Source of the DNA: Mycobacterium conspicuum
Lineage (GTDB): Bacteria > Actinomycetota > Actinomycetes > Mycobacteriales > Mycobacteriaceae
Length of the DNA: 32,000 nucleotides
Direction: 5' to 3'
NCBI RefSeq assembly: GCF_010730195.1
Contig: NZ_AP022613.1
Location: 2,626,097-2,658,096 of the forward strand
Shown: positions 1,745 to 32,000 of the stretch, in pieces
Numbering within the stretch: the first letter of the stretch is position 1
Layout: each line of letters opens with the position of its first letter
Notes under the pieces: model-generated
What the model was told of the DNA's origin: nothing
Databases searched by the model: none
The model's input: the letters and a program-made list of their open reading frames with translations, nothing else
Translations under genes and position numbers: made by a program

Positions 1745-1964
1745 GGATTTAAGTCTTGCGCGTGTCGCGTGGGATGGCATCGCACGATCGGGTGAGAGCT
1801 AAGGCCCCGTCGTCGCGCGAAGATCACAGCCGCGACATCGGTCATTCGGGCGATGTGACCGGCTTGTCGCGCACCTAGCGTCAGAACGGTGCCCACGGGT
1901 CTTGCCGGCTGGCCCTCGTGGGGCACGGCACCGAGTTCCGGCGATCAAGTTTTGGCAGGTGACG

Positions 1965-3620
1965 ATGACAGCTTCCGAGCACGACAACAGCTCGGCCGAT
2001 TTCGCCGCGTTGGCCCGCGCTAACCAGGAGCGCTTGGCGGCGGAATGGAATACGCGGGACTACGACTTCATCGTGTGCGGCGCCGGCACGTCGGGCTCGG
2101 TGCTGGCGCGCCGGCTGGCCGAGAACCCATCGGTCAGGGTGCTGCTGCTGGAGGCCGGGGGACCCGATGACGACCCCGCCATCCGGATTCCCGACCTGTG
2201 GCCGACCAACTTGGGCAGCGAACGGGACTGGGCCTTTCAGAGCGAGCCCAACCCGTGCGTCAACGGCCGCGCGTTGACGTTTTCGATGGGCAAGGCTCTG
2301 GGCGGCGGGTCGGCCATCAACGTCATGTTGTGGGCACGCGGCCACAAAGCCGACTGGGACTTCGTCGCGTCGGAAGCCGGCGATCCGGCCTGGGGCTACG
2401 AGTCGGTGCTCGACATCTACCGGGCGGTCGAAAATTGGCACGGCAAACCCGATCCGCGTTACCGCGGAACGGCGGGTCCCGTGTTCGTTGCGCCGGCACC
2501 CGACCCGCACCCGCTGGCGCACGCGGTCGTGGAGGCGGCAGGTTCGCTGGCCGTGCCGACGTTCGAGAACGCCAATGGTCGGCTGATGGAAGCCACTGCG
2601 GGGGCATCGATCTCGGACTTGAGGGTCCGCGACGGCACCCGCGAATCGGTGTTCCGGTCGTACGTCTACCCGTACCTGGACCGCCCGAACCTGACGGTGC
2701 TGACCGGCGCCGTGGTTCGGCGCGTCGTCTTCGACGGCCCGGTCGCCACCGGCGTCGAGGTCGCTTACGGCGCGGCGGTCCATCGGGTCGCGGCTCAGGC
2801 CGAGGTGATCCTGTCCATGGGTGCCGTCAACACGCCGAGGGTGCTGATGGTCTCCGGTGTGGGCAACGAACCTGACCTGGTTCGGGTCGGGATTCCTGTC
2901 GTCGCGCATCTGCCCGGTGTCGGCGCCAACTTTCAGGACCATGTCGGAGTGGACTGCGTCTGGCGGTTTCGCGACGTCCCGCCGCCCAACGCCAGATCCG
3001 AAGCCGTCGTGTACTGGCAACACGAAACCGGCGCCTGCTCACCGGAGCTGTTTGCGTACCTGGGCACCTTTCCGCACGCCAGCTCGGAGAACGCTGCGCG
3101 ATTCGGATTGCCCGACGACAGTTGGGTTCTGTTCGGCGGCGTCTCGCATCCACAAAGCCGCGGTCGTGTCCGGCTGACAGGAGCGGATCCAACCGACCCC
3201 GTGCGAATCGAAGCGAACACGCTGTGCGAGAACGCAGACGTGCAAGGGGCCGTGGCATGTGTCGAATTCCTGCGGGAAGTCGGCAATTCCGCGTCGGTAC
3301 GGCCTTTCGTAAAGGTCGAGGTGATGCCCGGAGCACTCGCGGGGGCGGAGCTGCAGCACTATGTTCGCGATGCCGCCCTGTCGTATTGGCACGGAGTGGG
3401 TACCGCCAGGATCGGCCGCGATTCAATGGCCGTCGTCGATAGCGGCCTCAAGGTGTACGGGATCGATCATCTGCGGATCGCGGACGCTTCGGTGCTGCCG
3501 CGGCTGCCCACCTCGAACACCATGGCCTCGTGCGTGGCCATCGGCGAGCGAGCCGCGGCGCTGATCGCGGCCGAACAGGGTTTGTCAGCCTCACTCACCT
3601 CAGCCGAGAACGAAAACTAA
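1965..3620 (+). CDS. GMC family FAD-dependent oxidoreductase (choline dehydrogenase-like)
   Basis: N-terminal Rossmann motif DYDFIVCGAGTSGSVLARRLAE. Also GGGSAINVMLW, and C-terminal HGVGTARIG and LRIADASVLP, all typical of GMC enzymes. Start chosen at ATG 1965 (MTASEHD...); the ORF opens at 1902. Confidence 0.9.
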   Translation: MTASEHDNSSADFAALARANQERLAAEWNTRDYDFIVCGAGTSGSVLARRLAENPSVRVLLLEAGGPDDDPAIRIPDLWPTNLGSERDWAFQSEPNPCVNGRALTFSMGKALGGGSAINVMLWARGHKADWDFVASEAGDPAWGYESVLDIYRAVENWHGKPDPRYRGTAGPVFVAPAPDPHPLAHAVVEAAGSLAVPTFENANGRLMEATAGASISDLRVRDGTRESVFRSYVYPYLDRPNLTVLTGAVVRRVVFDGPVATGVEVAYGAAVHRVAAQAEVILSMGAVNTPRVLMVSGVGNEPDLVRVGIPVVAHLPGVGANFQDHVGVDCVWRFRDVPPPNARSEAVVYWQHETGACSPELFAYLGTFPHASSENAARFGLPDDSWVLFGGVSHPQSRGRVRLTGADPTDPVRIEANTLCENADVQGAVACVEFLREVGNSASVRPFVKVEVMPGALAGAELQHYVRDAALSYWHGVGTARIGRDSMAVVDSGLKVYGIDHLRIADASVLPRLPTSNTMASCVAIGERAAALIAAEQGLSASLTSAENEN

Positions 3621-4462
3621 TGACCAGCTACGAGAGTGTGCGCTCCTCAACGGCCTTGGGCGCCAATGGAATCAGCTACCGTTATCGCCGCGTCGGCAAC
3701 CCGGCCGCACGGCCACTGGTGTTGCTGCAGCACTTTCGCGGCAACCTGGACAACTGGGATCCGGCGCTGCTGGACGCGCTGGCCGGCAGCCGCGAAGTCG
3801 TGGCGTTCGACAACGTCGGCGTGGGCGGCAGCACCGGGAGGGTACCGCCCTCGGTCACCCAGATGGCCCACGACGCGATCAGTTTCATCACCGCGGTGGG
3901 GCTGGACCGTGTCGACATCCTCGGCTACTCCCTGGGCGGTTTCGTCGCCCAGGAGATCACGCTGATTCGGCCCGACCTGGTCGAACGAATGGTGTTGGCG
4001 GCCACCGCACCACAGGGCGCGCCGGGCATGCACGGCTGGGTCGGGGACATCATCGATGCGGTGGGCTCAGAGCACACCACCGGCGACCAACTGCTGCACG
4101 CCTTCTTCACCGACAGCGCGGCCAGCCGCGCGGCAGGCGGGGAATTCCTGGGCCGGATATTCGCCCGCGCCGAGGGCCGCGACGAGGCCACCGACTGGGC
4201 GACTCGGCAGGCTCACTACGACGCAGTCGTGCAGTGGGGCGTCCCCAACCACAGCATGCTCGAACGGCTGGCCGCGATCAGCCAACCCGTGCTGGTCGCC
4301 AACGGCGACAGCGACCGGATGATCCTGCCCCGCTACAGCCACCTGTCGGTGAGCCTGCTGCCCAACGCCACCATCAAGATTTATCCCGATGCCGCCCACG
4401 GGTTCCTTTTCCAGCACCACAGCGCGTTCGCCGACGACGTCTGCGGGTTCCTCGACACGTAG
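3620..4462 (+). CDS. Alpha/beta hydrolase (Ser nucleophile)
   Basis: Its ATG overlaps the GMC stop (TAATG, 3618-3622). Nucleophile elbow is GYSLGG and the C-terminal His region is PDAAHGFLFQH. The ORF-track start at 3530 is an upstream extension lying inside the GMC gene. Confidence 0.9.
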   Translation: MTSYESVRSSTALGANGISYRYRRVGNPAARPLVLLQHFRGNLDNWDPALLDALAGSREVVAFDNVGVGGSTGRVPPSVTQMAHDAISFITAVGLDRVDILGYSLGGFVAQEITLIRPDLVERMVLAATAPQGAPGMHGWVGDIIDAVGSEHTTGDQLLHAFFTDSAASRAAGGEFLGRIFARAEGRDEATDWATRQAHYDAVVQWGVPNHSMLERLAAISQPVLVANGDSDRMILPRYSHLSVSLLPNATIKIYPDAAHGFLFQHHSAFADDVCGFLDT

Positions 4463-6250: not shown

Positions 6251-6777
6251 CGTCAACGCAGAGGGGGCGCCCCGTGAGCGATTCGAACGTCGACGCAATC
6301 GCGGTCCGCGACGAGGTGTCCCAGTGGTTCTTCGACCGCTACCTGCCCGCCTGGGTGGGAGTGGGAAACGGAACCCGTGACCTGGACCCCGATTTCATCC
6401 TCGATTACTGGGGGGTGCCGCTGCACCACTGCATGCCCAACGCGAGTGTGTGGCTGCTCGACGCCGCCGCGGTCGTCGACTTTCTCAAACGGCGGCACCG
6501 TGAACTGCGGGCCAGGGGCTACGCCTACACCGCCGTGCCGGACCGCAGCATCGTCGTCTACCACTCACATGGGGCCGCCATCGAAGTGATCTGGTCCCGC
6601 TGCCGCAGCACTGGCAGCGAGATCGAGCGCCTGGCAGTGCATTTCGAGGCGGCGCGGGCGTCAGACGGCTGGCGGATCGTGGGTATTCAAGCCGCACCCA
6701 CCAGTGCCGACACCCTGCGAGCGGCATGGCCGAACGGCCAGAAAACACTGAACCGAGGATCGGGGGTCCAATCGTGA
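6247..6777 (+). CDS. Hypothetical protein, possibly NTF2/SnoaL-like fold
   Basis: GTG at 6247 overlaps the MBL stop (GTGA). The 176-aa ORF ends by overlapping the next gene's GTG start. Coding is supported by operon context and composition. The fold guess is weak. Confidence 0.6.
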   Translation: MTSTQRGRPVSDSNVDAIAVRDEVSQWFFDRYLPAWVGVGNGTRDLDPDFILDYWGVPLHHCMPNASVWLLDAAAVVDFLKRRHRELRARGYAYTAVPDRSIVVYHSHGAAIEVIWSRCRSTGSEIERLAVHFEAARASDGWRIVGIQAAPTSADTLRAAWPNGQKTLNRGSGVQS

Positions 6778-10181: not shown

Positions 10182-10361
10182 CAACACGGTCGTCGTCCTT
10201 TCTGCTTCGGCTTGTGTGTTCTGCCGACAGCTCACAGGACGAGGCCAGCTACCGATCCCAAATAACGTCGGCCGCTGCGCCTTCATCAAGCTCATGGCAT
10301 CCAAATACTGAGCGTTGTAGCACATTTTGGGTTGTGCGCCGGTACCGTTCTACTCACGCTC

Positions 10362-12098
10362 ATGTCGACCGTGATCGCAGCACCGGCAATGGTTGCCGCG
10401 TCGGCCGCCGACCTGGCCCGCGTCGGGTCGGCCTTGAGCGCTGCCACTGCACTGGCGGCCCGACCCACCACCGCAGTGGTGACGGCCGCCGCGGATGAAG
10501 TGTCGGCGGCCATCGCGTCGCTGTTCTCCCGGCACGGTCAGCGATTCCAGGCGCTCAGCGCCCACGCGGCCGCGTTCCATGCCAACTTTGTGCAGGCCCT
10601 CGACGGGGCAGCGACCGCCTACAAAGCCGCCGAAGCCGCCAACGCCTCTCCGTTGCAGGCGGTGGTGCGCACCGCCCAGATCCTGGCGCTGTTTTCACCC
10701 GTCGCGGCGGCCACCGGGCGCCCGCTGGTCGGCAACGGCGCCAGCGGAACTCCGGGCACCGGACAGGCCGGGAAAGCCGGGGGATGGCTCTATGGAAACG
10801 GCGGCGACGGCGGGTCCGGCGCCCAGGGGCAGGCCGGCGGCAACGGCGGAGACGCCGGCCTGATCGGCAACGGCGGCAGGGGCGGTGCCGGCGGTAAGGG
10901 CGCGGATGGCGCCACCGGAGGCAACGGTGGTGCCGGCGGGCGCGGCGGACTGTTGTACGGCAACGGCGGCGACGGCGGTGATGGTGGCAAGGGCGGCGAC
11001 GGCGCCACCGGCGGCGACGGCGGCGTGGGTGGGCTCGGCGGGCAAGGCGCGGCCTTCTTCAGCCACGCGGGCAGCGCGGGCGCCAACGGCCAAGCCGGCA
11101 CCAGCCTCGGCGACGGTGGTGGCGGTGGTGGCGGCGGCGGGTCGACGTCGGGGGAGTACTCGCCCTACGTCGACATCACGCTCTACCCCGGGCCCAACGG
11201 CTACGACTTCGCGGCCGCCGGCCAGGCGGGGGTCAACAACGCCACGCTCGCCTTCATCACCGCCGACCCCAACGGTCAACCGGCCTGGGGCGGCTACACG
11301 GCCTACGACATCGCCGGCGGCTCGCAGATCTCCTACATCAACAACCAGATCACCAACATGCACACCGCGGGCATCAACGGGACCATCTCGTTCGGGGGCG
11401 CGGCCGGCACGGATCTGTCCGCGGTGCCGGGGCAGACCCCCGCTGCACTAGAGCAGGACTACCTGACCGTCGTAAACACCTACCACATCTACAATCTCGA
11501 CTTCGATGTGGAAGGCGCGCTGCAGGGCAACACCCAGGCACTGACCACTCAGGCGCAGGCGATCGCCATGTTGCAGGCGGAGGAGGCGGCCGCCGGCACA
11601 CCCATCACGGTCTCCTACACGCTGCCGGTGCTGCCGACCGGTTTGGTCGAGGGACAGGGCGGCGGATACAACGTCCTGCAGATCGCTAACACCAACGGCG
11701 TCACCGTCTCTCGCGTGAACGTCATGGCGATGGACTATTACGATCCGTCGGTCACCGACATGGGAACCGCGGCGATCGACGCCGCGACGGCAACACACAC
11801 CCAGTTGATGACGCTGTATCCGTCGCTCACCAGCCAGCAGGCCTGGAACCTGGTCGGCGTGACGCCGCTGATCGGAATCAACGATGACCCAAGCGAGATC
11901 TTCACCCTCGCCGACGCCCACCAGCTGACCACCTTCGCCCAGCAGAACGGCATCGGTGAACTGTCCATGTGGGAGTTGCCGCGCGACGTCACCGGCACGT
12001 TGGGCTCGGTAGACGCCGTCGACGGCAGCGGAATCACCCAGACCCCGTTTGAGTTCTCGCAGATCTTCGAGCAGATCGAGAACGCATCCCAAACCTGA
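10362..12098 (+). CDS. PE-PGRS family protein with a C-terminal GH18 (chitinase-like) domain
   Basis: PE domain [25 protein letters not shown]...[36 protein letters not shown]...AYKAAE. Gly-rich GGxGG repeats follow. Then a ~310-aa domain carries ISFGG, LDFDVEG (DxDxE, nt 11499-11513), MAMDYY and SMWELPRD. Confidence 0.9.
10719..11147 (+). repeat. PGRS Gly-rich coding repeats, ending in nine consecutive Gly codons (11115-11141)
   Basis: Repeated GNGGxGG/GGAGG units are read directly from the translation. The run is GGT GGT GGC GGT GGT GGC GGC GGC GGG. Confidence 0.9.
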
Positions 12099-18009: not shown

Positions 18010-19608
18010 TCAGGGCTGATCGAAGATGGTCATCCCGAGGCCGCTGGGGCTGTTCTGGATATACACCGGTGTCAGCAGGAACGGCGCCATCCCGGTATTG
18101 AACGCCCCGAAGCTGGACGGGTCGGTCGACGTGACCAACGGGCCGGTCGACGCCGTTGTCGTATACGAATACAGCAGCGTCGCACCGTCACTGGTGTAGA
18201 CGGAGATGGTTGTCCCGGCCGGCATGGCCTGGCCGAGCGAGAAGGGGCCGATGGTGATCGGGATTGTGTCGCCGCCGTAAATGGCTGCCGGGATGGCTCC
18301 ATACTGACCACCGGAATCGATCGCCGTGGTAACCGGTTGCGGCGCTCCGCCATTGATCGATACCTCCACGGTGGTCAACGGGGCGCCCGGGACCGACGCG
18401 TTGGGAATCGGCGTCAACGGGTTGGGGCCGAACTCCAGGTAACCCGCGGTGGGGCTGGTTGCGTTGATGAGCACACCCTGACTCAGTTGTCCGGGCAGGG
18501 CCGCGGTCACCGGGGAGGTGTTGGGGCCCAATGCATTTGGGCCGATACCCAGAATGCCGGTACCGCTATCACCCCAGTTGGTGAAGGGTGGCACGTCGGG
18601 GAACACCCACTCGATGGTCGGTAGCTTGGTGATCTCGATCGGGGAAAGGCCTCCGGGGAGCGGGATTTCGATCGGATGCGCCAGGCTCAAGGTGATGCCG
18701 CGGAGTGAAAAGAGCGGGACGTCAACGTTGATCGGCGTGGTCGCGATCCCATTTCCGAAATTCACGGTCGTGTTGAACGTGAGGCAGTAATCGGTGATGA
18801 AATTCCCCGAGCCGGGTTCGCCGTAGGTCACGTGAGTGAACCCGGTGGGCATGCCGAGGTGCTGGAGTCCGATGTCGGTGACGGGGATGACGAGGCCGGC
18901 GGATCCGGTGTCGACGATCACCGACACGCTGCGCCCGCCGTTGACCGAGATATTGACCATCTCGTCGATCGACCCCGAGTTCGTCCCGGTGGTGGACACC
19001 TGGTGCAGCGGGACGGTCGCGTTCACCGCCGTCCCGGCGCCGGCCACCCCGTTCTTGCCGGACAGCCAGCCGCCGAGGCCTCCGACACCCCCGACCGCGC
19101 CGGCACCGCCGGAGCCCCCAGCACCCCCATTGCCGATCAGCCCCGCGTTACCGCCGCTTCCGCCGGCGAGCCCCGCTGCCGTTTGGGAGTAACCGTTGCC
19201 ACCGTTGCCGTACAGGATTCCGCCGGGCTTGCCGTTGGGGTGCGCGGCCGTCCCGTTCGCGCCGTCGCCCACGAGCGGGCGCCCGGTCAGCGCCGCGACG
19301 GGCGAAAACACGGCCAGGCTCTGAGCGCCCGACGCCTCGGCGGCGGCGTACGCACTCTCCGCCGCGCTCAGGGCCTGCACGAACCGCGCATGAAACGCCG
19401 CCGCCCGCGCACTGAGCGCGTGGAACTGCTGGCCGTGACCGGAAAACAGTGACGCGATCGCCGCCGATACCTCATCACCGGCCGCGGCGATCACCCTGGT
19501 GGTCCGGGCCGCTGCGGCCGCATTGACCGCGTCGAGCGACGACCCGATGCTCGCCGCATCTTGCGCGGCCGCCGCCACCACCTCGGGTGCGGTGATCAGG
19601 TAAGACAT
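18010..19608 (-). CDS. PE-PGRS protein with C-terminal PecA-type aspartic protease domain
   Basis: PE domain MSYLITAPEVVAAAAQDAASIGSSL...YAAAE, followed by a short PGRS. The protease domain carries both catalytic triplets: VIVDTGSAGLVIP (Asp codon 18910-18912) and AIDSGGQYGAIP (Asp codon 18316-18318). Confidence 0.9.
   Translation of the reverse strand: MSYLITAPEVVAAAAQDAASIGSSLDAVNAAAAARTTRVIAAAGDEVSAAIASLFSGHGQQFHALSARAAAFHARFVQALSAAESAYAAAEASGAQSLAVFSPVAALTGRPLVGDGANGTAAHPNGKPGGILYGNGGNGYSQTAAGLAGGSGGNAGLIGNGGAGGSGGAGAVGGVGGLGGWLSGKNGVAGAGTAVNATVPLHQVSTTGTNSGSIDEMVNISVNGGRSVSVIVDTGSAGLVIPVTDIGLQHLGMPTGFTHVTYGEPGSGNFITDYCLTFNTTVNFGNGIATTPINVDVPLFSLRGITLSLAHPIEIPLPGGLSPIEITKLPTIEWVFPDVPPFTNWGDSGTGILGIGPNALGPNTSPVTAALPGQLSQGVLINATSPTAGYLEFGPNPLTPIPNASVPGAPLTTVEVSINGGAPQPVTTAIDSGGQYGAIPAAIYGGDTIPITIGPFSLGQAMPAGTTISVYTSDGATLLYSYTTTASTGPLVTSTDPSSFGAFNTGMAPFLLTPVYIQNSPSGLGMTIFDQP
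19039..19281 (-). repeat. PGRS Gly-rich coding repeats
   Basis: GNGGNG/GGAGGSGGAG units in the translation of 18010..19608. Confidence 0.85.
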
Positions 19609-19786: not shown

Positions 19787-22303
19787 GTGAGTGGCGCGAG
19801 CGAACAGCTTGACGAACTGGTGGCGGCTCGCGATCAGATGGAACATCTGGTGCGGGTCATCGTCGAGATCGGTTCCGATCTGGACCTGGATGTGACGTTG
19901 CGTCGGATCGTCAGTGCGGCGGTGGAACTGAGCGGCGCCCGGTACGGAGCTTTGAAACTGCGTGCCACCGACGCCAGCCCGTCCTCCGTTGTGCGCGCCG
20001 GAATCAACGACGACGCGGCGCGGCGGCTCAGTGGTCTGCCAGTAGGAGCGGGTATCCGGATCGACGATCTGACCGCTGATCCCGAAGGCGCCGCGCTGCT
20101 CGGTGGCGATCCGCCGATGCGGGCACTCCTCGGCCTACCGATCACCGTGCGCGCGGCCGACTTCGGGAGCCTCTACCTGCTCGACGACCGGCCCGGCCAT
20201 GTGTTCTCTGACTCGCAGGAGAACGCCGTGCGGGCGTTGGCCACTGCGGCGGCGGCGGCCATCGACAACGCGCGGCTGTTCGTGCGGGAACGTGAATCGG
20301 CGAAGTGGACGAAGGCCAGCCGCGAGATCACGACGGCATTGTTGTCCGGCGACCCCCGGACGAGGCCGTTGCAACTCATCGTGAACCGCGCGCTGGAGTT
20401 GGCCGGAGCCGAGCAGGCAATCTTGTTGATCCCCAGCGAACCCGATCTGCCCGCCGACCAGGTCGACGCGCTCGTGGTGGCCGCCACGGCAGGCCGCTAC
20501 TCCTCCGAAGTGATCGGCCGGCAGGTGCCGATGGCCGGCTCCACCACGGGCGGTGTCGCGCGTCGCGGCCTGCCGCTGATTACCGATTCCTTTCAATACC
20601 CGATCGAGGGATTCACCGATGTCGGCGAGCGCTCGGCGATCGTCATGCCGCTGATCGCCGACGACGCGGTGCTGGGTGTGATCGCGGTGGCGCGTGACCC
20701 GCGGCAGCCGCCGTTCGACAGCGATTACCTCGAACTTGTCAGTGACTTCGCCCGCCACGCGGCGATTGCCTTGGCGCTGGCGGCGGGTCGCGAACATGCG
20801 CTCAACCAGGAACTCGCTCAAGCCGACAACGTCGATGACGCGGTGCATACCGCGGCGGAGGAATTGCGTCGGATCTGGCGGGCACGCCGGGTCCTGGCCG
20901 TGACCTTCCCCAGCCGCCCTTCCTCCGCTGAGGCAGCGTCCGGGGCACCGCGGCTGGTCTCGGTCGGCGAACCCGCACAGTGGTTCGATCTGCCGCCCCA
21001 GACTCGTCAGCTGCTCGGCTCGGTGCGCGCCGGCGACCTGCTGACCCCCAACACCACGCAGCCCGGAACGGCGGCCATCGCGCTGCAGCATCCCGACGGT
21101 GTGCTCGTCGTCTGGATCGATCTGGCAGAAGAACGGCCGTTCACCCTCGAGGACCAGACCCGGCTCACCGTGCTGGCCGGTCGCCTCGGCCAGGCGCTGC
21201 AGCGGGTGCACCAGGTCGACCAACAGCGCGAAACCGCGCTCGCGCTGCAACACGCCATCCTGGGCCCGGCTGACCTGCCGCACGGGTTCGCGGTGCGCTA
21301 TCAGGCCGCCGCCCGCCCGTTACAGGTCGGCGGCGACTGGTATGACGTCGTCGAGTTGGAGGACGGCCGGATCGCGTTGATCGTCGGCGACTGTGTCGGC
21401 CATGGGCTGGACGCTGCCACCGTGATGGGGCAGCTGCGCAGCGCCTGCCGCGCGCTACTTTTCCAAAATCCAAGTCCCGCAACCGCTCTCGAGTGGCTGG
21501 ACCGGTTCGCGGCCCGGCTGCCCGGCGCCCAGTGCACCACCGCCGTGTGCGCGGTGCTCAACCGCGAGACCGGTGAACTCGTGTACTCCAGCGCCGGGCA
21601 CCCGCCGCCGATCGTGGCGCACGCCGACGGGACCACCCGGATACTCGACGATGGCCACACCATCGCTTTGGGCATCCGACCCCACCGGTCGCGCCCCGAA
21701 GCCAGCGTGATCCTGCCGGCGCGCGGCTGCCTGGTGCTCTACACCGACGGTCTGGTCGAACGTCGCCGCATACCGCTCGATGACGGCATCGCCCGCGCGG
21801 CCGCCTTCGTTCAAGAGGGCCTCGCCGCCCCGCTGGATGACTTGGCGGACCAGATCATGTCCCGTCTCGCCCCCAGCGGCGGCTATCAGGACGACGTGGC
21901 GCTCCTCATGTACCGCCACCCCGCCCCGCTGGAGCTGGAGTTTCCCGCCCACGTCAGCCAGGTCGCGACGACCCGGATGGCGTTACGCAGCTGGTTGAAA
22001 CGAGCCGGGGTGAACGCCGCCGAGACGATGAAGGTGCTGATTGCCGCGGGCGAGGCGGTCGCCAACGCCATCGAACACGGACACCGCAAAAATCCGGACT
22101 GCACGATTCGTCTGGACGCGACCGCGCTGGTCGACGAGGTGCAGTTGACCATCGCCGACACCGGCTCGTGGAAGACCCCCCAACCGGCCGTCAACGCCCA
22201 TCGCGGTCGCGGTATCACCCTCATGCGAGGCCTGATGCACGACGTCACGATCGACCCCGACGCCGCCGGGACAACCGTCCACCTATCCGCGAGGATCACA
22301 TGA
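19787..22303 (+). CDS. Multidomain partner-switching regulator: tandem DevS/DosT-like GAF domains, third GAF-like region, PP2C (SpoIIE) phosphatase, RsbW-like HATPase_c kinase
   Basis: GTG 19787, 838 aa. GAF-A/GAF-B carry LDVTLRRIVSAAVELSGARYGAL, DPPMRALLGLPI, FGSLYLLDD, AIDNARLF and REITTALLSG. The PP2C domain carries VGGDWYDV and GDCVGHGLDAA. The kinase domain carries GEAVANAIEHG, ADTGSW and GRGITLMRGL. Confidence 0.9.
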   Translation: MSGASEQLDELVAARDQMEHLVRVIVEIGSDLDLDVTLRRIVSAAVELSGARYGALKLRATDASPSSVVRAGINDDAARRLSGLPVGAGIRIDDLTADPEGAALLGGDPPMRALLGLPITVRAADFGSLYLLDDRPGHVFSDSQENAVRALATAAAAAIDNARLFVRERESAKWTKASREITTALLSGDPRTRPLQLIVNRALELAGAEQAILLIPSEPDLPADQVDALVVAATAGRYSSEVIGRQVPMAGSTTGGVARRGLPLITDSFQYPIEGFTDVGERSAIVMPLIADDAVLGVIAVARDPRQPPFDSDYLELVSDFARHAAIALALAAGREHALNQELAQADNVDDAVHTAAEELRRIWRARRVLAVTFPSRPSSAEAASGAPRLVSVGEPAQWFDLPPQTRQLLGSVRAGDLLTPNTTQPGTAAIALQHPDGVLVVWIDLAEERPFTLEDQTRLTVLAGRLGQALQRVHQVDQQRETALALQHAILGPADLPHGFAVRYQAAARPLQVGGDWYDVVELEDGRIALIVGDCVGHGLDAATVMGQLRSACRALLFQNPSPATALEWLDRFAARLPGAQCTTAVCAVLNRETGELVYSSAGHPPPIVAHADGTTRILDDGHTIALGIRPHRSRPEASVILPARGCLVLYTDGLVERRRIPLDDGIARAAAFVQEGLAAPLDDLADQIMSRLAPSGGYQDDVALLMYRHPAPLELEFPAHVSQVATTRMALRSWLKRAGVNAAETMKVLIAAGEAVANAIEHGHRKNPDCTIRLDATALVDEVQLTIADTGSWKTPQPAVNAHRGRGITLMRGLMHDVTIDPDAAGTTVHLSARIT

Positions 22304-23513: not shown

Positions 23514-25028
23514 GTGTCACTTCTGGTCGTGCTCCCCGAGGTAGTGCAGTCGGCGGCCGCCGAGCTGCGTGACATCGGGGCGGAACTGGGTGCGGCGCGG
23601 GTGGTCGCTGCGGCTCCGACGACCGGGCTACCGGCGGCCGGCGCCGACGAGGTATCGGTGGCGGTGGCGGCGCTGTTCACCGGCCACGGTCGGCAGTTCC
23701 ACACGGTTAGCCTGCAGGCCAGCGCGTTTCACCAACGGTTTGTCCGGGCGCTGCACTCGGGGGCCGGGGCGTACCAGCTCACCGAGGCGCTGGGTGGCCG
23801 CCCGCTGATCGGCAACGGCGCCGACGGCGGCCCCGGGCAACCCGGCGGGCCCGGGGGATGGCTCTATGGCAACGGCGGGGCGGGCGGCGCAGGCACGGCG
23901 CCGGGAATGGCCGGTGGGCCCGGCGGGGCCGCGGGGCTGATCGGCGACGGGGGCCGCGGGGGCGCCGGCGGCGCAGGCGCGAATGGGGGGGCCGGCGGCC
24001 GCGGCGGCTTGTTGTTCGGTCACGGCGGAACCGGTGGCCAGGCCGGCAGCGGCGCGGCGGGCGGCGCCGGCGGTGCCGCGGGATTGATCGGCAACGGCGG
24101 CGCGGGGGGTGCCGGCGTGAGCGGGCTTCATGGCGGCCCTGGCGGCAGCGGCGGCGCGCTGCTCGGCCGCACCGGGCCGGTGGGCGCCGGTCCGACGGGC
24201 ACCGTACCGCTGCAGCTCCTCAGCGGCGCTAACGGCGTCGAGCCAGCGATCAACATCTCCGTCAACGGCGGGCCCAGTGTGCCCGTCGTGGTCGATACCG
24301 GATCCGAAGGCCTGGTTATTCCGTTGCGGGACATCGGAATTCTCGGTCTCGGACACCCCACCGGCGTTACCGGCGTCGCCTATGGTTCGGGGATACTTCT
24401 GGTCTGCTGCACCTTTCAAACCACGGTGAATTTCGGGAACGGCATCGTCTCCGCGTCGACTAGCGTCAACATTCCGGTTCTGACGATCCCGATCTCGCTT
24501 GACGGTGTGCGCTTCATGTTGGCGGGCCAGACCTACGGTTACGCCGACGGCATCTTGGGCATCGGGGCCAACGCGACGGCCCCGGGGCCCAGTAGCGTGA
24601 CGACCGCGTTGCCGGGCGAGCTCAACCAGGGTGTGCTGTTCAACGAACCCCAGGGCTACCTGCAGTTCGGGCCCAACCCGCTACCCGCCGGGGTGCCGGT
24701 GGTCGGAGCACCGTTCACCGCCCTGAACGTATCCATCGACAACGGGCCGATGCACAGCGTTTCCGCCATCATCGACAGCGGCGGCGAGCAAGGCTACCTC
24801 CCTTCGTCGATTGGGAGGTCGATCGGGAGCGTGCCGCCGGGCACCACGATCTCGGTCTACACCAGCGACGGGAACACGCTGCTGTACTCGTACACGACAA
24901 CCGCGGGGAACAGCCCGACGGTGGTATCCGGCGACCAGATGAACACCGGCAACGAGCCCTTCGCGCTGGGACCGGTGTACATCTCGTACAGCCCGAGCGG
25001 CGTCGGCGCCACGGTCTTCGACACCTAG
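23514..25028 (+). CDS. PE-PGRS protein with C-terminal PecA-type aspartic protease domain (second copy)
   Basis: GTG 23514 (VSLLVVLPEVVQSAAAELRDIGAEL...), T7SS motif YQLTE, then a longer PGRS. Catalytic motifs are VVVDTGSEGLVIP (Asp codon 24294-24296) and IIDSGGEQGYLP. Its TAG stop overlaps the convergent stop of the next gene (CTAG, 25025-25028). Confidence 0.9.
   Translation: MSLLVVLPEVVQSAAAELRDIGAELGAARVVAAAPTTGLPAAGADEVSVAVAALFTGHGRQFHTVSLQASAFHQRFVRALHSGAGAYQLTEALGGRPLIGNGADGGPGQPGGPGGWLYGNGGAGGAGTAPGMAGGPGGAAGLIGDGGRGGAGGAGANGGAGGRGGLLFGHGGTGGQAGSGAAGGAGGAAGLIGNGGAGGAGVSGLHGGPGGSGGALLGRTGPVGAGPTGTVPLQLLSGANGVEPAINISVNGGPSVPVVVDTGSEGLVIPLRDIGILGLGHPTGVTGVAYGSGILLVCCTFQTTVNFGNGIVSASTSVNIPVLTIPISLDGVRFMLAGQTYGYADGILGIGANATAPGPSSVTTALPGELNQGVLFNEPQGYLQFGPNPLPAGVPVVGAPFTALNVSIDNGPMHSVSAIIDSGGEQGYLPSSIGRSIGSVPPGTTISVYTSDGNTLLYSYTTTAGNSPTVVSGDQMNTGNEPFALGPVYISYSPSGVGATVFDT
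23796..24188 (+). repeat. PGRS Gly-rich coding repeats
   Basis: Repeated GGAGG/GNGGAGG/LIGxGG units in the translation of 23514..25028. Confidence 0.85.
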
Positions 25029-26056
25029 CTGGCCGATATGCGTTGAGCGACTTCGCCATATCGCTCGAAGCGTTCAGCATCGGCGAGTGCGTTATACAAG
25101 ACGATGCGGGTCGCGACTCCTGCGTACTTTGCGACAAGCGCGTCGGCCAAACCATCCCATGTCGACTCGGTGGCGAACACGGCCAGGTGGTCGTCGGTGA
25201 TCTGGGCCGCCATGCCCTTGAAGTCACCGGCCTTCTGCTTCTCCCGCAGCCGGGCGGTCGTGCCCTCAAACCCAGCCTCGTCCAGGATGAAGGAGTAGTT
25301 CGGCGTACTTGCATAGAAACTCATGCTGGCCCGCGCGAGCTCACGCTCGTTGTGGCGTTCTTCGTCGGTGTCGCCGACGATCGTCATGACCGGCACGATG
25401 ACCGCGAGGTCCGACGGTGACCGATTCGATTTCTGCGCTCCGGCAGCAATATTGGGGACGACGTGGCGCGCCAGGTATCCGGGCTCACCGAGCGGATGGA
25501 CGTGGACTCCGTCGGCGACCTCGCCCGCCATGCGCAGCATCCACGGATTGACGGCGGCGATGTCGACCTTGGGGTCGGGCGCATCGATGGATCCCGGGCT
25601 CCACTGCGGCGTGATGAAGTCCAGGTCGTAGAACTCTCCGTGGTGATCGAGCGTCCCCGTCCGGAACGCGGCGAAACACGCCTTCACGGCGTGCACGTAA
25701 TCGTGCAGCCGGGGACCCGGACGCTCGAATTGCACGCCGTATCGCCGCACCACGTGCGTGCGCACCTGGGTGCCCAGGCCCAGCCGGAACTTCCCGTTCG
25801 TCGCCTCTTGGAGTTCCCATGCCGTCGCAGCTGTGACGAACGGGCTACGCGGAAAGGCGACCGCAACGCCGGTCGAGAGCTCCAGACCGGGCGCCGCCTG
25901 AGCTGCCACTGCGGCGTTGAGATAGGCGGTACGGCCGGTTTCGGTGAGCAGGAGGCCAGAAAATCCTGCGGCCTGGGTGCGCCGGGCGGTGTCGCCGATC
26001 AGGGCCAGGGGCAGTGGAACGGTCATCACGTCGACATGCACAGTCGAACGGTACAT
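25025..26056 (-). CDS. LLM-class (luciferase-like) oxidoreductase, probably F420-dependent
   Basis: 343 aa with GFSGLLLTETGR, LSTGVAVAFPRSPF and GKFRLGLGTQVRTHVVRRYG, typical of luciferase-like monooxygenase family proteins in mycobacteria. The start could instead be GTG 26041. Confidence 0.85.
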   Translation of the reverse strand: MYRSTVHVDVMTVPLPLALIGDTARRTQAAGFSGLLLTETGRTAYLNAAVAAQAAPGLELSTGVAVAFPRSPFVTAATAWELQEATNGKFRLGLGTQVRTHVVRRYGVQFERPGPRLHDYVHAVKACFAAFRTGTLDHHGEFYDLDFITPQWSPGSIDAPDPKVDIAAVNPWMLRMAGEVADGVHVHPLGEPGYLARHVVPNIAAGAQKSNRSPSDLAVIVPVMTIVGDTDEERHNERELARASMSFYASTPNYSFILDEAGFEGTTARLREKQKAGDFKGMAAQITDDHLAVFATESTWDGLADALVAKYAGVATRIVLYNALADAERFERYGEVAQRISAS

Positions 26057-26538
26057 CGTTTAACCACGTTGGCGCACCGCCCATTTGGGGGCGGAAGTGC
26101 TCAGTGTGGTGACGGCACCGCCGCGGGTCGTGGTTTCAGGACCAGGCTCACCGCGACCGCGACGACGACAATCCCAGCACAGATCCACCGTGCGGACTGG
26201 AATCATGCTGGCGGTCGCGCTCACCCGCGATCCCCCCGGGTGGCCGAGGTCAACGGGGCGCATCGGCCGCGGCAGCCGGCGAGCAAGAAATCCGCAAGAA
26301 CTTCGCGGTCGTGTCGCAAGCGGCGTGCTGCAACCTGAGTGAAGCCGGCCGCAAAGGTGCGGCCGACCCGCGTCTCTGCAGTCGGCACGGGACCGATAGC
26401 AACGCGGAAGGGCCCCGAACTCAAGGTTGCTGGTGTTATGTTGGCGTCGCCGGTCCGTGACCTGCAGACAGCGTTTTACGGTTCCGCGCTCGCCGGTCTG
26501 GCCCTTGACCCATCTCGAGTAGGCGGTGAGGAGAACGA

Positions 26539-26766
26539 GTGAGCATCAATCCGTTCGACGACGACAGCGGTAGCTTCTTCGTCTTGATCAACGACGAAGA
26601 GCAACACAGCCTGTGGCCGGTTTTCGCCGATGTTCCGGCCGGGTGGCGGGTGGTCTTCGGCGAAGCGGACCGGGCCGCGTGCCTGGAATACATCGAACAG
26701 AACTGGCCCGATATCCGCCCGAAGAGTCTGCGCGAAAGGTTGGCGCAGCCGGGCACCGACTCCTGA
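26539..26766 (+). CDS. mbtH: MbtH-like protein
   Basis: GTG at 26539 is preceded by [69 protein letters not shown] is a near-consensus MbtH signature containing the three invariant Trp. Confidence 0.95.
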
Positions 26767-26769
26767 TCC

Positions 26770-29700
26770 GTGAGCCGTCGGGTTGGCGGTCGAATGAAGC
26801 GTAACGGGGATGAGCCGGTCAAGATCCGTGGCTACCGTGTCGAGCTGGGGGAGGTTCGGGCCGCGCTGGCGGAGCTGGCGGGGGTGGATCGGGCGGCGGT
26901 GATCGTCCGCGAGGACCGCCCCGGCGACCGGCGACTGGTCGGCTATGTCACCGAGTCCCGCCGTGGGGCGGTGGACCCGGCCGGGGCGCGCGCGGGGCTG
27001 GCGGAGCGGTTGCCGTCCTACATGATTCCGGCCGAGGTGCTGGTGCTCGAAGCGCTGCCGTTGACCGCCGACGGCGACGTCGACACCCGCGCCCTGCCGG
27101 CACCGGAGCCGCGCATCGACCCCCGCATCAAGCAAGTGCTGCACGACGTCTTCGCGCGCCTGCTCGGCGTGGACGAGGTCGGCATCGACGAGTCGTTCTT
27201 CGATCTGGGCGGGGATTCGTTGTCGGCGATGCGGGCCATCACCGCGGTCAACGCGGCCCTGGACGTCGACCTCAAGGTGGGCGCCCTGTTCAACTCGCCG
27301 ACGATCGCCCAGTTGGCGGCGCGCATCGACGGCAACTCTGGTGGGCTCATGCCGTTGCGGGCCGGGGCGCGGCCCGCGGTGATTCCGTTGTCGTTCGCGC
27401 AGAGCAGGCTGTGGTTCATCGCCCAATTGCAGGGGCCCTCACCGGTTTACAACCGGTCGATGGCGCTGCGCCTGCGAGGGCAGCTGGATGTCGACGCACT
27501 GCAGGTGGCGCTGGTCGATCTGGTGGGTCGGCACGAGAGCCTGCGCACCGTGTTTTCGGCGGTCGACGGGATACCCCAGCAACTGATCGTTTCGGGCGAT
27601 CGCGCCGACTTCGGCTGGGGGGTCGTGGATGCGACGGGATGGCCGGCGGACACGTTGAGCGAGGCCATCGAAGAGGCGGCGCGTGGCTGTTTCGACCTGG
27701 AAGCCGAAATTCCGTTCCGGGCAAGGCTTTTCCGTGTCGCAGACTGCGAGCACGTGTTGCTCATCACGCTGCACCACATCGCCGGAGACGGTTGGTCGAT
27801 CGGTGTGCTGGCCGCCGATCTGGGAGCGGCCTACGTCAGCCGGTGCGCCGGCCAGGCCCCGGGCTGGGCCGAATTGCCGGTGCAGTACGTCGATTACGCG
27901 CTGTGGCAGCGGGAGAATCTCGGTGATCTGGCGGACCGAAACAGCCCATTGGCGGCCCAAGTCGGCTATTGGGAAGAGGCGCTCGCAGGCATGCCCGACC
28001 GCCTTGCTCTGCCGACCGATCGGCCCTACCCGTTGGTCGCCGACCACCGTGGCGCCAGCGTGGTGGTGGAGTGGTCGGCCGACTTGCAGCGGCGGGTGGG
28101 AAGCGTTGCCCACGAATATAATTCGACCAGCTTCATGGTGGTTCAAGCCGCCCTGGCGGCGCTGTTGTCGCGCCTGAGCAGCAGCGCCGACGTGGCGGTG
28201 GGATTCCCGATCGCCGGCCGCGGAGATCCGGCCCTGGACGGCCTGATCGGATTCTTCGTCAACACCCTGGTGTTGCGGACCGACCTGACCGGGAATCCGA
28301 CCTTCACCGAGCTACTCGATCAGGTACGACAGCGAAGCCTGTCCGCCTACGAGCACCAGGACGTGCCCTTCGAAGCGCTTGTCGATAGGCTCAACCCCCC
28401 GCGATCGCGGACGCATCACCCGCTGATCCAGGTGATGTTGGCCTGGCAGAACTTCACCTGGCAATACGACGACCCCGCCGCCGGGCTGGCGCTGGGGGAT
28501 CTGCAAGCAAGTCCCATGGCGCTGCGCACCCACACCGCCCGCATGGATCTGGTGTTCTCCCTGGCTGAACGCTTCACCGACAACGGTGTGCCCGACGGCA
28601 TCGTCGGGACGGTGGAATTCCGCACCGACGTGTTCGACGCCGCCAGCATCGAGACGCTGGTGCGGCGTTTCGAAAAGGTCTTGGTCGCGGTGACGGCCGA
28701 CCCGACGGCGCGGGTGTCGTCGTTGGATCTGCTCGACGCCGGGGAACGGGCCCTGCTGCAGGGCTGGGGTAACCGGTCGGCATTGACTCGGGCCGCGCCC
28801 GCGGCTGTGGCGATTCCCGAGGTGTTTGCCGCCCAGGCCGCGCGGTCGCCCGACTCGGTGGCGCTGGTGTGCGCAGACCGCTCGTGGACGTACCGGGACG
28901 TCGAGGAAGCGTCGAATCGGTTGGCGCACTTACTTGTTGACCGTGGCATCGGCTCGGGCGCGTGTGTGGCGTTGCTGTGTGAGCGGTCGGCGGAGGCGAT
29001 CGTCGCGATCCTGGCGGTGCTCAAGACCGGGGCGGCGTACGTACCGCTGGACCCGGCCCACCCGGCGGCGCGTACCGATTTCATGCTCGGGGATGCCGCG
29101 CCGACGGCCGCGATCACCACCGCCGCACTGCGCCCGCGGCTGGATGGACACGACTTGCCCGTCCTCGACGTCGCCGACCCGTGCATCGCCGGCTACCCGT
29201 GCACGAGCTTGCCCGCGCCGGCGGCGGACGGCATCGCGTACGTCATCTACACCTCGGGCACGACCGGTGCGCCCAAGGGTGTGGCCATTACGCATCGCAA
29301 CCTGACCCAGCTGATCGCGTCGCTGGACGCGGGCCTCCCGACGGCCGCGGAGCAGGTGTGGACGCAATGCCACTCCTATGTCTTCGACTTCTCGGTGTGG
29401 GAGACCTGGGGTGCGCTCTTGCGGGGCGGCCGGCTGGTGGTGGTGCCCGAGTCGGTGGCGGGCTCGCCGAGCGACTTCCACGAACTGCTGGTCTCGCAGC
29501 GGGTCAACGTGATCACCCAGACCCCGTCGGCGGTGGGGGCATTGTCGACCGACGGGCTGGACTCCGCGGCCTTGCTGGTGGGCGGCGAGGCATGCCCGGC
29601 CGAGGTGGTGGATCGGTGGGCCCCCGGGCGGGTGATGATCAACGCCTACGGTCCCACCGAAACCACCATCTATGTGGCGCTGAGCGGAGCCCTGCGGGCG

Positions 29701-32000
29701 CATTCGGGGGTGCCGCCGATCGGGTCGCCCGTGCCCGGGGCGGCCCTGTTCGTGCTGGACGATTGGTTGCAGCCGGTGCCGCCCGGTGTGGTCGGTGAGT
29801 TGTACGTGGCCGGCGCCGGTGTGGGCGTCGGATACCTGCGCCGGGCGGGCCTGACGGCGGCGCGCTTCGTGGCGTGCCCGTTCGGTGGAACCGGTGCCCG
29901 GATGTATCGCACCGGGGACCTGGTGTGCTGGCGCGCTGACGGCGCGCTGACGTACGTCGGGCGCGCGGATGAGCAGGTCAAGCTGCGTGGCTATCGCATC
30001 GAACCCGGCGAGATCCAGGCGGCGCTGGCCGCGCTGCCCGGCGTCGAGCAGGCGGTGGTGATCGCCCGCGAGGATCGCCCCGGGGACAAGCGCCTGGTGG
30101 GTTACATCACGGGCAGCGCGGACCCCGCGGCGGCGCGCGAACTGGTCGCCGAGCGGCTGCCCGGCTACATGGTGCCGGCCGCGGTGGTCGCGGTGGCGGC
30201 GCTGCCGCTGACGGTCAACGGCAAGCTCGACACCGGTGCGCTGCCGGCGCCGGAGTACCACGACGGTGACCGCTACCGCGCGCCGTCCACGCCGATCGAG
30301 GACATCCTGGCCGGCATCTACGCCCGCGTGTTGGGCGTCGAGCGCGTGGGTGTCGAGGATTCTTTCTTCGACCTGGGCGGGGATTCGCTGCTGGCGATGC
30401 GCGTGGTCGCCGCGGCCAGCGCGGCCCTGGACGTCGACCTCAGGGTGGGCGCGCTGTTCGATGCGCCGACGGTCGCGCGGTTGGCCGCTCGCGTCGACGG
30501 CGGCTCCCGGGGGCTGGCGCCGCTGGTGCCGGCGGATCGGCCCGCGGTGATCCCGCTGTCGTACTCCCAAAGCCGGTTGTGGGTCATCGACCAGCTGGAA
30601 GGTCCGTCTCCCCTCTACAACATGGCGATCGCGTTGCGCTGCACCGGCCACCTGGATACCGAGGCGCTGGGCGCGGCACTCGCCGACGTGGTCGGCCGAC
30701 ATGAGAGCCTGCGCACCACGTTTCCCGCCGCCGCCGGGGTGGCGCGGCAGGTCGTTGTGCCCGCGGAGCGCGCGGACTTCGGCTGGGAGGTCGTCGACGC
30801 GGCCGACTGGTCGACGGCCCGGCTGCAGGACAGCGCCGAGGAGGAAGCCCGCAGCCCGTTCGATCTGGCGACCGAAATACCGTTGCGGGCAAAGCTTTTC
30901 CGGATCACCGACTCCGAGCACGTGCTGGTGGCCGTGGTCCACCACATCGCCGCCGATGGCTGGTCGATCGGTGTGCTGGCCGCCGATTTGGCCGCAGCCT
31001 ACGCAAGCCGGTGCGCGGGTCAGGCGCCGGACTGGGCGCCCCTGCCGGTGCAGTACGCCGACTACGCGTTGTGGCAGCACGCGCAGTGGGGTGACCTCGG
31101 CGGGCAGTTGGCGTATTGGGAGCGGGCCCTGGCCGGACTGCCCCAACGCCTGGAGCTGCCCACCGATCGGCCGTATCCGTTGGTGGCCGATCACCGGGGC
31201 GCCAGCGTGACCGTGGAATGGCCGGCCTCGTTGCAGCAACAGCTGGCTTCGGTTGCCCGCGAACACCATTCGACCAGCTTCATGGTGATCCAGGCGGCGC
31301 TCGCGGTGCTGTTGTCGCGGCTGAGCGGCAGCGTCGACGTAGCCGTGGGATTCCCGATCGCCGGTCGCGGCGATCCCGCGCTGGATGGGCTGGTGGGGTT
31401 TTTCGTCAACACCCTCGTGTTGCGCGTCGACCTCGCCGGGGACCCGACCTTCACCGAACTGCTGGCCCAGGTGCGTCGGCGCAGCCTGGCGGCCTACGAG
31501 CATCAAGACGTGCCGTTCGAGGTGCTGGTGGATCGGCTGCAACCCCCACGGTCGCTGAACCATCATCCCCTGATCCAGGTCCTGCTGGCCTGGCAGACCA
31601 ACACCCCGGGCGAGCTGACTCTGGGTGACGCGCGGGCCACCCCGATGCCGATCGAAACCCACACCGCCCGAATGGATTTGGTGTTCTCCCTGACCGAGCG
31701 GCGCACCGGTACCGGTGCGCCGGCCGGGATCGAGGCGACGGTGGAATTCCGGACCGACGTGTTCGACGCGGCCAGCATCGAAACCCTGGTCGACCGGCTG
31801 CGGCGGGTTCTGGTCGCGACGACGGCCAATCCGGGGCTGCGCTTGTCGACGGTGGACCTGCTCGACGAGGGTGAGCACCGCCGCCTCGGACGCTGGGGCA
31901 ACCGGGCGGTGCTGGCCCAGCCCGCGCCGCCCGCGCTGTCGATCCCCGCGGCGTTGGCCGACCAAGTCGAGCGCACGCCCGATGCGGTGGCGGTGAGCTT
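26770..32000 (+). CDS. Non-ribosomal peptide synthetase, 3'-partial (runs off the window). Domain order seen: degenerate A-subdomain, T, C, A, T, C, A(start)
   Basis: This frame is not in the ORF track because it has no stop within the window. I translated it by hand at about 10 points from 26767 to 32000 and saw no stop. The first possible starts are GTG 26770 and ATG 26794. All core motifs are listed in the domain features below. Confidence 0.9.
26794..27105 (+). other. NRPS: C-terminal subdomain of an adenylation domain only (A8-A10), with degenerate A10
   Basis: [16 protein letters not shown] is motif A8. A10 reads [10 protein letters not shown] instead of LPLTxNGKxD, so the invariant Lys codon position (27076-27078) is GAC (Asp). 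No A1-A7 core lies upstream. Confidence 0.8.
27127..27330 (+). other. NRPS: thiolation (PCP) domain 1
   Basis: [15 protein letters not shown], with the phosphopantetheinyl Ser codon at 27217-27219. Confidence 0.85.
27379..28750 (+). other. NRPS: condensation domain 1
   Basis: C1 motif is [12 protein letters not shown]. The active site is HHIAGDG (27772-27792). FFVNTLVLR and YEHQDVPFE are also present. Confidence 0.85.
28807..30240 (+). other. NRPS: complete adenylation domain
   Basis: Motifs are [80 protein letters not shown] and an intact A10, [10 protein letters not shown] (Lys codon 30223-30225). Confidence 0.9.
30289..30490 (+). other. NRPS: thiolation (PCP) domain 2
   Basis: [15 protein letters not shown], with the Ser codon at 30385-30387. 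Confidence 0.85.
30547..31900 (+). other. NRPS: condensation domain 2, followed by the start of the next adenylation domain at ~31936
   Basis: C1 motif is [12 protein letters not shown]. The active site is HHIAADG (30940-30960). [19 protein letters not shown] at the window end is the A1 region of the next module. Confidence 0.85.

Follow-up and report, generated by a model that had tools for sequence, protein, structure and literature searches.

A mycobacterial peptide synthetase gene that begins with the remnant of an adenylation domain and a conserved carrier domain

Mycobacterium conspicuum carries a nonribosomal peptide synthetase (NRPS) gene that opens inside an adenylation (A) domain rather than at the start of a complete module. 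We analyzed a 32,000-nt stretch of its genome (assembly GCF_010730195.1, contig NZ_AP022613.1, positions 2,626,097 to 2,658,096 of the forward strand), referred to below as the window, in which this gene occupies the 3′ end. The first gene of the cluster is mbtH-like (26539–26766, + strand) and encodes a 75-aa protein that matches Pfam PF03621 (E 2.9e-29, 100.7 bits against a cutoff of 27, profile positions 3–53 of 53), placing it in the MbtH-like family. A 27-nt spacer (26767–26793, +) separates its stop codon from the NRPS gene (26794–32000, +), of which the window holds the 5′ 5.2 kb; the gene runs past the window end and has a total length of 7164 codons, as judged from gene calls in GCA_002102095.1 and GCA_025821765.1, a motif map and Pfam domains. 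The initial annotation had reported that the NRPS frame is the frame of mbtH, that it is open immediately after the mbtH stop and that GTG 26770 and ATG 26794 are its candidate starts. Indeed, a single frame is open from 26767 to the window end and both codons are present, the GTG within the spacer and the ATG just 3′ of a GGCGG stretch. ATG 26794 is the start in the gene calls of two NCBI assemblies and aligns with the start methionine of all orthologues. Translated from 26770, the part of the gene in the window contains two PP-binding, two Condensation and two AMP-binding_C domains but one AMP-binding core (Pfam).

The missing core is that of the first A domain. Residues 6–104, counted from ATG 26794, align with residues 430–533 of GrsA PheA and with the A-T didomains of LgrA (E 1e-50), and the hinge aspartate of motif A8 (PheA D430) is preceded by only five residues, in agreement with the assignment made initially. 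We refer to this segment (26794–27105, +), a relic of the C-terminal A subdomain that spans motifs A8 to A10 and has no A core, as a*. In place of the catalytic A10 lysine (PheA K517), both the motif and the PheA alignment give an aspartate (GAC, 27076–27078, +), whereas none of the five complete A domains in this synthetase has lost the A10 glycine-lysine pair. The relic thus has neither the A1–A7 core nor the A10 lysine of a functional adenylation domain. AlphaFold nevertheless predicts a folded subdomain, with a pLDDT of 86–93 over residues 11–100, and the model lies within 1.0–2.5 Å root-mean-square deviation of solved A subdomains over 94–103 residues. Behind a* lies an N-terminal carrier domain, T0 (27136–27327, +; PF00550 at residues 123–186 of the translation from 26770), which has no cognate A core. 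T0 keeps the phosphopantetheine-attachment serine in its GGDSL motif (TCG, 27217–27219, +), and this serine is found in 12 of 12 orthologous sequences.

The carrier is followed by C1, a condensation (C) domain (27370–28734, +) that retains the HHxxxDG motif as HHIAGDG (27772–27792). Within the synthetase, C1 has 71–72% identity to C2 and C5; for C3 and C4, both of which come after epimerisation (E) domains, the figure is about 30%. C2 and C5 are not preceded by an E domain and are therefore LCL-like. By contrast, C1 has 21–25% identity to the starter C domains of six mbtH loci of the glycopeptidolipid (GPL) type, in which the synthetase opens with a C domain, and so does not resemble the starter C domains associated with lipoinitiation. 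By sequence criteria, C1 is classed as an ordinary elongation-type (LCL-like) C domain and not a lipid-starter C domain. The first complete A domain, A1 (28825–30225, +), comprises a core (28825–29838; PF00501 at 686–1023) and a subdomain extending to 30225 (PF13193 at 1081–1152), and has motifs A3, A7, A8 and A10. It is followed by the carrier T1 (30316–30519, +; serine codon 30385–30387), identified by Pfam and the motif map, and by the LCL-like C2 (30547–31887, +; PF00668 at 1260–1706). A specificity code for A1 was read by hand and then dropped, as positions 299 and 301 hinge on an ambiguous one-residue gap, and we claim no substrate.

The full 7164-aa protein has the order a*-T0-C1-A1-T1-C2-A2-T2-E-C3-A3-T3-E-C4-A4-T4-C5-A5-T5-R, where R is a terminal reductase domain resembling those of FadD9 and other CAR-type enzymes. 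With five complete C-A-T modules, two E domains and the R domain, it is a modular NRPS. This map joins two fetched loci (such loci are labeled here with L-numbers), L001 for residues 1–3324 and L087 for residues 3832–7164, both from M. conspicuum; the roughly 500 residues between them, with the A3 core, lie outside the map. The 5′ part of the gene is built as a module-length tandem repeat with a period of about 3159 nt (26804–31994, +; blastn aligns 26804–28865 with 29963–31994 at 72% DNA identity), and the a*-T0-C1-A core unit shares 72–73% DNA identity with the next unit. The repeat units thus run from an A subdomain through T and C to an A core, and the 5′ end of the gene cuts the first of them at the A8 hinge.

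We found no trace of the missing core upstream. Queries representing A cores, C domains and T domains (tblastn, window positions 1–26793, all frames) gave a best E value of 0.19, the best for an A core being 0.87, and Pfam detected no adenylate-forming enzyme in the 26.5 kb upstream of the NRPS gene. Instead, the matches upstream of mbtH were to hydrolases, oxidoreductases, PE-PGRS proteins, signalling proteins and a luciferase-like monooxygenase. The absence of an A1–A7 core or starter C domain, noted at the outset, therefore holds for the whole upstream part of the window. An assembly or sequencing artefact could in principle hide such a core, although nothing beyond the oddity of the junction itself speaks for it. 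The 761 nt of window positions 26340–27100 are 100% identical in three other independent assemblies, GCA_002102095.1 (LQOR01000084), GCA_025821765.1 and the Logan assembly of DRR161213, whose contigs also encode an identical MbtH protein, and the same junction is present in other species. We consider the chance of an artefact practically negligible.

The shared frame of mbtH and the NRPS gene, which are separated in the window by TGA and nine sense codons, had also raised the idea of an MbtH-NRPS fusion split by one stop codon, or of read-through of the TGA joining the two proteins. Among orthologous loci, 16 to 32 nt separate the end of mbtH from the NRPS start codon, and the two frames agree in three of eight, which is the chance expectation. 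A stop codon and a separate NRPS start are present in eight of eight, and a homologous start methionine with a GG-rich stretch 5′ of it is found in all loci in which T0 follows mbtH. By this comparison, the in-frame relation in the window is best attributed to chance, and a fusion relic or read-through is highly improbable. The IdeR iron box TWAGGTWAGSCTWACCTWA does not occur in the window, even with up to 3 mismatches, and nothing thus points to siderophore-type regulation; a scan for promoters and terminators 5′ of mbtH yielded nothing exceeding shuffled sequence; and a search of 25900–27000 against Rfam gave nothing above threshold. The sole Rfam match, most likely due to chance, was to the Hrs13 small RNA in the intergenic region 5′ of mbtH (26338–26433, −; 21 bits against a gathering score of 52, E 0.015).

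The comparison with related mycobacterial mbtH-NRPS loci, proposed as a check by the initial annotation, placed the M. conspicuum start in a distinct minority class. Species-representative genomes were scanned with the MbtH protein, and a domain-order script classed what follows mbtH in the 80 loci fetched; L005, L091, L092 and L093 were reached through protein matches instead. In 35 of the 80 loci the NRPS begins with a C domain that is followed by a complete A domain, as in GPL synthetases; these include loci of M. europaeum, M. scrofulaceum, M. colombiense, Mycobacteroides franklinii and Mycolicibacterium species. An mbtH gene followed by T0 is found in eleven lineages. The order a*-T0-C-A is present in the metagenome genomes L020, L041 (the same as L004) and L056, and in L005, L091, L092 and L093; T0-C-A without a recognisable a* is present in two M. 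asiaticum genomes (L029 and L045) and in L043. T0 domains of different species are mutual best matches at 63–82% identity, above every internal T domain, which argues that T0 is an orthologous feature with a single origin.

While T0 keeps its serine and core motif in these loci, a* is found in several states of decay. The alignment shows its fullest form, cut between A7 and A8, in L005, L004 and L020; the M. conspicuum relic in the window has an 8-residue deletion relative to its orthologues; L056 has an 18-residue deletion that removes the A8 motif; in M. asiaticum the relic is gone save for an A10/linker trace, TLRGEPDTGASPEPE; and in L043 it is replaced by a five-fold (T/L)EGETT repeat. The last case comes from the metagenome-assembled genome Mycobacterium sp. 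maxbin.118, where the tandem repeat lies at about 6256–6400 of the locus, between the start methionine and the T0 linker. The A10 lysine is replaced by aspartate, glutamate or glutamine in seven of nine orthologous relics. Module number varies among the orthologous synthetases, from five in M. conspicuum (7164 aa) to three in the L005 genome, and the L004 genome encodes a protein of about 5880 aa. All of them retain the a*-T0 start and a terminal R domain, as well as the ABC exporter described below. All LCL-type C domains are about 70% identical whatever their position or species, suggesting that modules recombine frequently. One further locus stands apart: L092, from JGI metagenome 3300086613, has mbtH, a*-T0 and a partial C1 (424 aa, with out-of-frame residues at its end) at 1729–4010, followed directly by an MMPL gene. 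Its NRPS body seems to have been deleted in that lineage, or else the contig is chimeric. L092 shares its upstream DUF6632 gene with M. asiaticum L029 but retains a complete relic.

We compared the selective constraint on these segments using pairwise Nei-Gojobori ratios of nonsynonymous to synonymous substitution rates (dN/dS) on a codon alignment. With dS at 0.5–1.0 and extreme GC3 and codon bias, the ratios are meaningful only between segments; their medians were 0.27 for T0, 0.30 for T1, 0.21 for C1, 0.24 for the A1 core, 0.19 for the A1 subdomain and about 0.28 for a*, the last taken between loci that retain it. T0 and C1 thus appear to be constrained as much as domains that must work, and a* appears somewhat relaxed but not neutral. 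Since M. asiaticum tolerates loss of the whole subdomain, we read the constraint on a* as pertaining to a foldable N-terminus and not to catalysis. T0, in turn, combines the PP-binding fold, the GGxS serine and purifying selection, all the sequence-level features of a functional carrier.

These data bear directly on the proposal that a deletion removed the loading module and left the line dead or decaying. The A core and any upstream C domain are indeed absent, the A10 lysine is lost, and the part of the proposal that invokes a 5′ truncation of the A domain stands, albeit as an old event. Decay of the line does not fit. The 7164-codon frame is intact in two isolate assemblies, all later A domains retain their motifs, and dN/dS is 0.19–0.30 throughout rather than near 1; there are none of the frameshifts and premature stops of a pseudogene. 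The same start recurs, well beyond a single strain or species, in eleven lineages with T0 identities of 65–89%, an outcome that the initial annotation had itself named as refuting this proposal, and the gene for the ABC exporter overlaps the NRPS stop by 4 nt. A recent deletion that turned the gene into a decaying pseudogene is therefore very improbable. As far as sequence comparisons can tell, the start architecture is ancient and working, and is neither a fresh deletion nor a sequencing error.

A subtler version holds that the line is alive but that T0, and perhaps C1, is carried along unused, with synthesis beginning at module 1 and a*-T0 wholly a relic. Erosion of the adjacent a*, the lack of a loader gene nearby and the apparent loss of the NRPS body itself in the L092 metagenome contig are all consistent with this idea. 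However, 12 of 12 sequences keep the T0 serine and core motif, whereas a* has undergone at least four different deletions or replacements, and dN/dS for T0 and C1 is as low as in domains that must work. C1, moreover, keeps HHxxxDG, and an elongation C domain deprived of a donor blocks synthesis rather than starting it. We regard an idle T0 as improbable.

If T0 is in use, it must be charged by an enzyme other than an A domain of its own, the candidates being the neighboring A1 and an enzyme encoded elsewhere in the genome. The initial annotation had suggested a start from a vestigial subdomain and a T domain loaded in trans, for example by a FadD-type ligase. The vestigial subdomain followed by a carrier charged by another enzyme fits the data best, given the recurrent start, the conserved serine and a dN/dS of 0.27; gene context lends no support to the FadD-type ligase, as none lies near the cluster in three genomes. 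The core common to M. conspicuum and two relatives (L086 and L090, from the same genomes as L004 and L005, respectively) consists of mbtH, the NRPS gene and the ABC exporter gene, the start of which overlaps the NRPS stop by four nucleotides (L087 10001–10004), suggesting that synthetase and exporter are translationally coupled. In M. conspicuum the exporter is followed by genes for a 761-aa MMPL-family protein and an MFS transporter and then by unrelated genes. Genes 5′ of mbtH vary between species, those upstream of L020, L056, L029 and L043 being unrelated and non-syntenic, and the cluster thus begins at mbtH. Searches for FadD or fatty acyl-AMP ligase (FAAL) genes, free A domains and polyketide synthase (PKS) genes found none in the window's 26.5 kb upstream or in the 10 kb downstream of the M. 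conspicuum NRPS gene, none downstream in L086 and L090, and none upstream in L020, L056, L029 and L043. What the downstream stretches yielded in this search were exporters and regulators. In the neighborhoods covered, with no loader or PKS present, the conserved core is reduced to mbtH, the NRPS and the ABC exporter.

We weighed two ways of charging T0. In the first, lipoinitiation in trans, an unlinked FadD-type fatty acyl-AMP ligase would acylate T0, and C1 would link the acyl group to the first residue; the product would be a lipopentapeptide alcohol or aldehyde. FadD32-Pks13, FadD26-PpsA and FadD10-Nrp are established FAAL-carrier pairs. FAALs pass acyl chains to holo-carrier domains in mycobacteria (PMC8460268), and conservation of T0 under selection, the MMPL-family transporter adjoining the NRPS in M. 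conspicuum and its relatives, and the identity of the sister C-first mbtH loci as GPL-type peptidolipid synthetases all agree with such a route. Set against it are the absence of fadD within 26 kb upstream and 10 kb downstream in M. conspicuum and near the cluster in two relatives, and the elongation type of C1, which is only distantly related to the acyl-accepting starter C domains of the C-first loci. Mycobacterial FAAL genes normally lie beside their synthase, and in none of the three genomes does a fadD gene adjoin the synthetase in the manner of a FAAL-primed megasynthase. On balance, we consider lipoinitiation of this line unlikely. In the second, T0 would receive an amino acid from an A domain of the same synthetase. 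The elongation type of C1, together with the lack of a clustered loader in three genomes, favors an aminoacyl donor of this origin. T1 is the closest paralogue of T0 (60% identity) and the native partner of A1, making A1 the simplest candidate loader.

Collectively, these observations lead us to propose the following account, in which an A domain of the same synthetase serves T0. In the ancestor of a slow-growing mycobacterial clade, the first NRPS repeat unit would have been cut inside its A domain, just 5′ of the A8 hinge, so that the gene now begins with a catalytically useless a*, the carrier T0 and a normal elongation domain, C1. The relic would be dispensable and eroding, with T0 and C1 kept by selection and in use. 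T0 would be phosphopantetheinylated and then charged by an adenylating enzyme not its own, most plausibly the neighboring A1, which would put its amino acid on both T0 and T1. C1 could then condense the T0-bound donor with the T1-bound acceptor; four further modules, two with epimerisation, would extend the chain; and the terminal reductase would release a peptide aldehyde or alcohol, to be exported by the adjoining ABC, MMPL and MFS transporters. We think it likely that the core of this account (an old truncation, a living line, a functional T0 and a dispensable relic) is right. For the account as a whole, with an A domain as loader, our confidence is evenly divided. Its most specific form, in which the A core was never replaced by a dedicated enzyme and A1 reaches back across C1 to charge T0 as well as T1, is tentative and somewhat doubtful. 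If that form is correct, the product of the five A domains would be a peptide alcohol or aldehyde of six residues with a homodipeptide at its start.

Several points weigh against this account. Identity between T0 and T1 within species (57–64%) falls inside the range between species (45–72%), giving no sign of the co-evolution that a shared A domain might leave. The MMPL-family exporter beside the NRPS gene and the mycobacterial tradition of peptidolipids would suit a fatty-acyl starter. "Useless relic" may overstate the case for a*, with its dN/dS well under 1 and its confidently predicted fold, and the subdomain may be retained for folding or solubility of the N-terminus. Finally, two of the relatives, L004 and L005, come from frameshift-rich metagenome assemblies, and the constraint argument carries the restriction on dN/dS given above.

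The region upstream of the cluster contained additional features. The LQOR assembly agrees with the window only 3′ of position 23953, and a JACKSP contig stops at 24102, both points lying within a PE-PGRS gene (23514–25028, +). Short-read assemblies break or mis-join at the PGRS repeat, and the differing upstream genes in L001 may accordingly reflect an assembly join and not a rearrangement. This PE-PGRS gene and a second one (18010–19608, −) encode a C-terminal aspartyl-peptidase-like domain (PF20729), and a third (10332–12098, +) has a weak match to glycosyl hydrolase family 18 (E 9.5e-6, under the Pfam cutoff). A gene at 19787–22303 (+) encodes a GAF-GAF-SpoIIE phosphatase-HATPase_c_2 fusion and is followed by a STAS-domain gene (called at 5762–6076 in L003), a regulatory pair of the partner-switching type a few kilobases 5′ of the cluster. 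Upstream of mbtH in L020 there is a larger relative with HisKA, receiver, PAS, SpoIIE and HATPase_c_2 domains.

The significance of the locus is modest. It offers a clean evolutionary example and a question of loading, not a new principle or kind of biology. It concerns an uncharacterised, five-module, reductase-terminated NRPS of a slow-growing mycobacterium that is clinically occasional, and of its relatives, and provides a concrete, testable case of an initiation carrier deprived of its own activating domain, with the relic of that domain caught at several stages of decay. If our account is correct, the series from full to shortened, lost and repeat-replaced forms of a* would document, as a natural record, the remodeling of an NRPS initiation module after such a loss. 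Such a record should be useful for the study of module recombination and for the engineering of A-T-C exchange units. It also holds a caution for annotators and domain callers, as a start of this kind is neither a pseudogene nor an assembly fault.

A search of the literature on the M. conspicuum NRPS and on A-domain remnants with loading in trans found no paper on this locus, but several known systems share parts of its architecture. The C-first loci of the GPL mps1/pstA type resemble it in their surroundings, with mbtH immediately upstream, a multimodular NRPS with E domains, a FadD9-like terminal reductase and MMPL-family exporters nearby, and their MbtH proteins are 84–95% identical to the one in the window. 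They differ at the start, where a starter C domain and then a complete A domain stand in place of a*-T0 and an elongation C domain, and the M. conspicuum cluster has no pks, fadD, papA or glycosyltransferase genes in its vicinity. Megasynthases that begin with a carrier charged in trans are likewise known: MbtB, HMWP2 and PchE, which have aryl carriers (the order in PchE being PCP-Cy-A-(E)-PCP; PMC10510592), and mycobacterial PKSs, whose N-terminal ACPs are loaded by FadD (FAAL) enzymes. In those systems the loader gene (mbtA, ybtE, pchD or fadD) lies in or beside the cluster and the next domain is Cy or KS, whereas the M. conspicuum synthetase has no loader nearby and continues with an LCL-like C domain.

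Parallels for the proposed loading are found among modules that lack an A domain. In thalassospiramide, WS9326A, viomycin and capreomycin biosynthesis, carriers of such modules depend on an A domain at another place in the assembly line or on free A-PCP enzymes, and in the viomycin and capreomycin pathways A domains load several carriers (PMC10510592). These are internal C-T modules without an A relic; here it is the initiation carrier that is affected, and it is accompanied by an A subdomain. In the fimsbactin synthetase FbsE, a degenerate A remnant does stand beside a carrier whose predicted loader is the A domain of another module, FbsF (PMC11291136). The FbsE remnant is internal and belongs to a Gram-negative siderophore pathway, and the N-terminal aryl carrier of FbsE has a clustered free A domain, FbsH; in M. 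conspicuum, by contrast, the remnant opens the protein, and the cluster includes no free A domain. By analogy, the M. conspicuum start probably works like these A-less modules, with its carrier served by a foreign A domain. It differs from them in that the A-less carrier is the initiation carrier and that the A subdomain survives beside it as a relic in varied states of decay across species.

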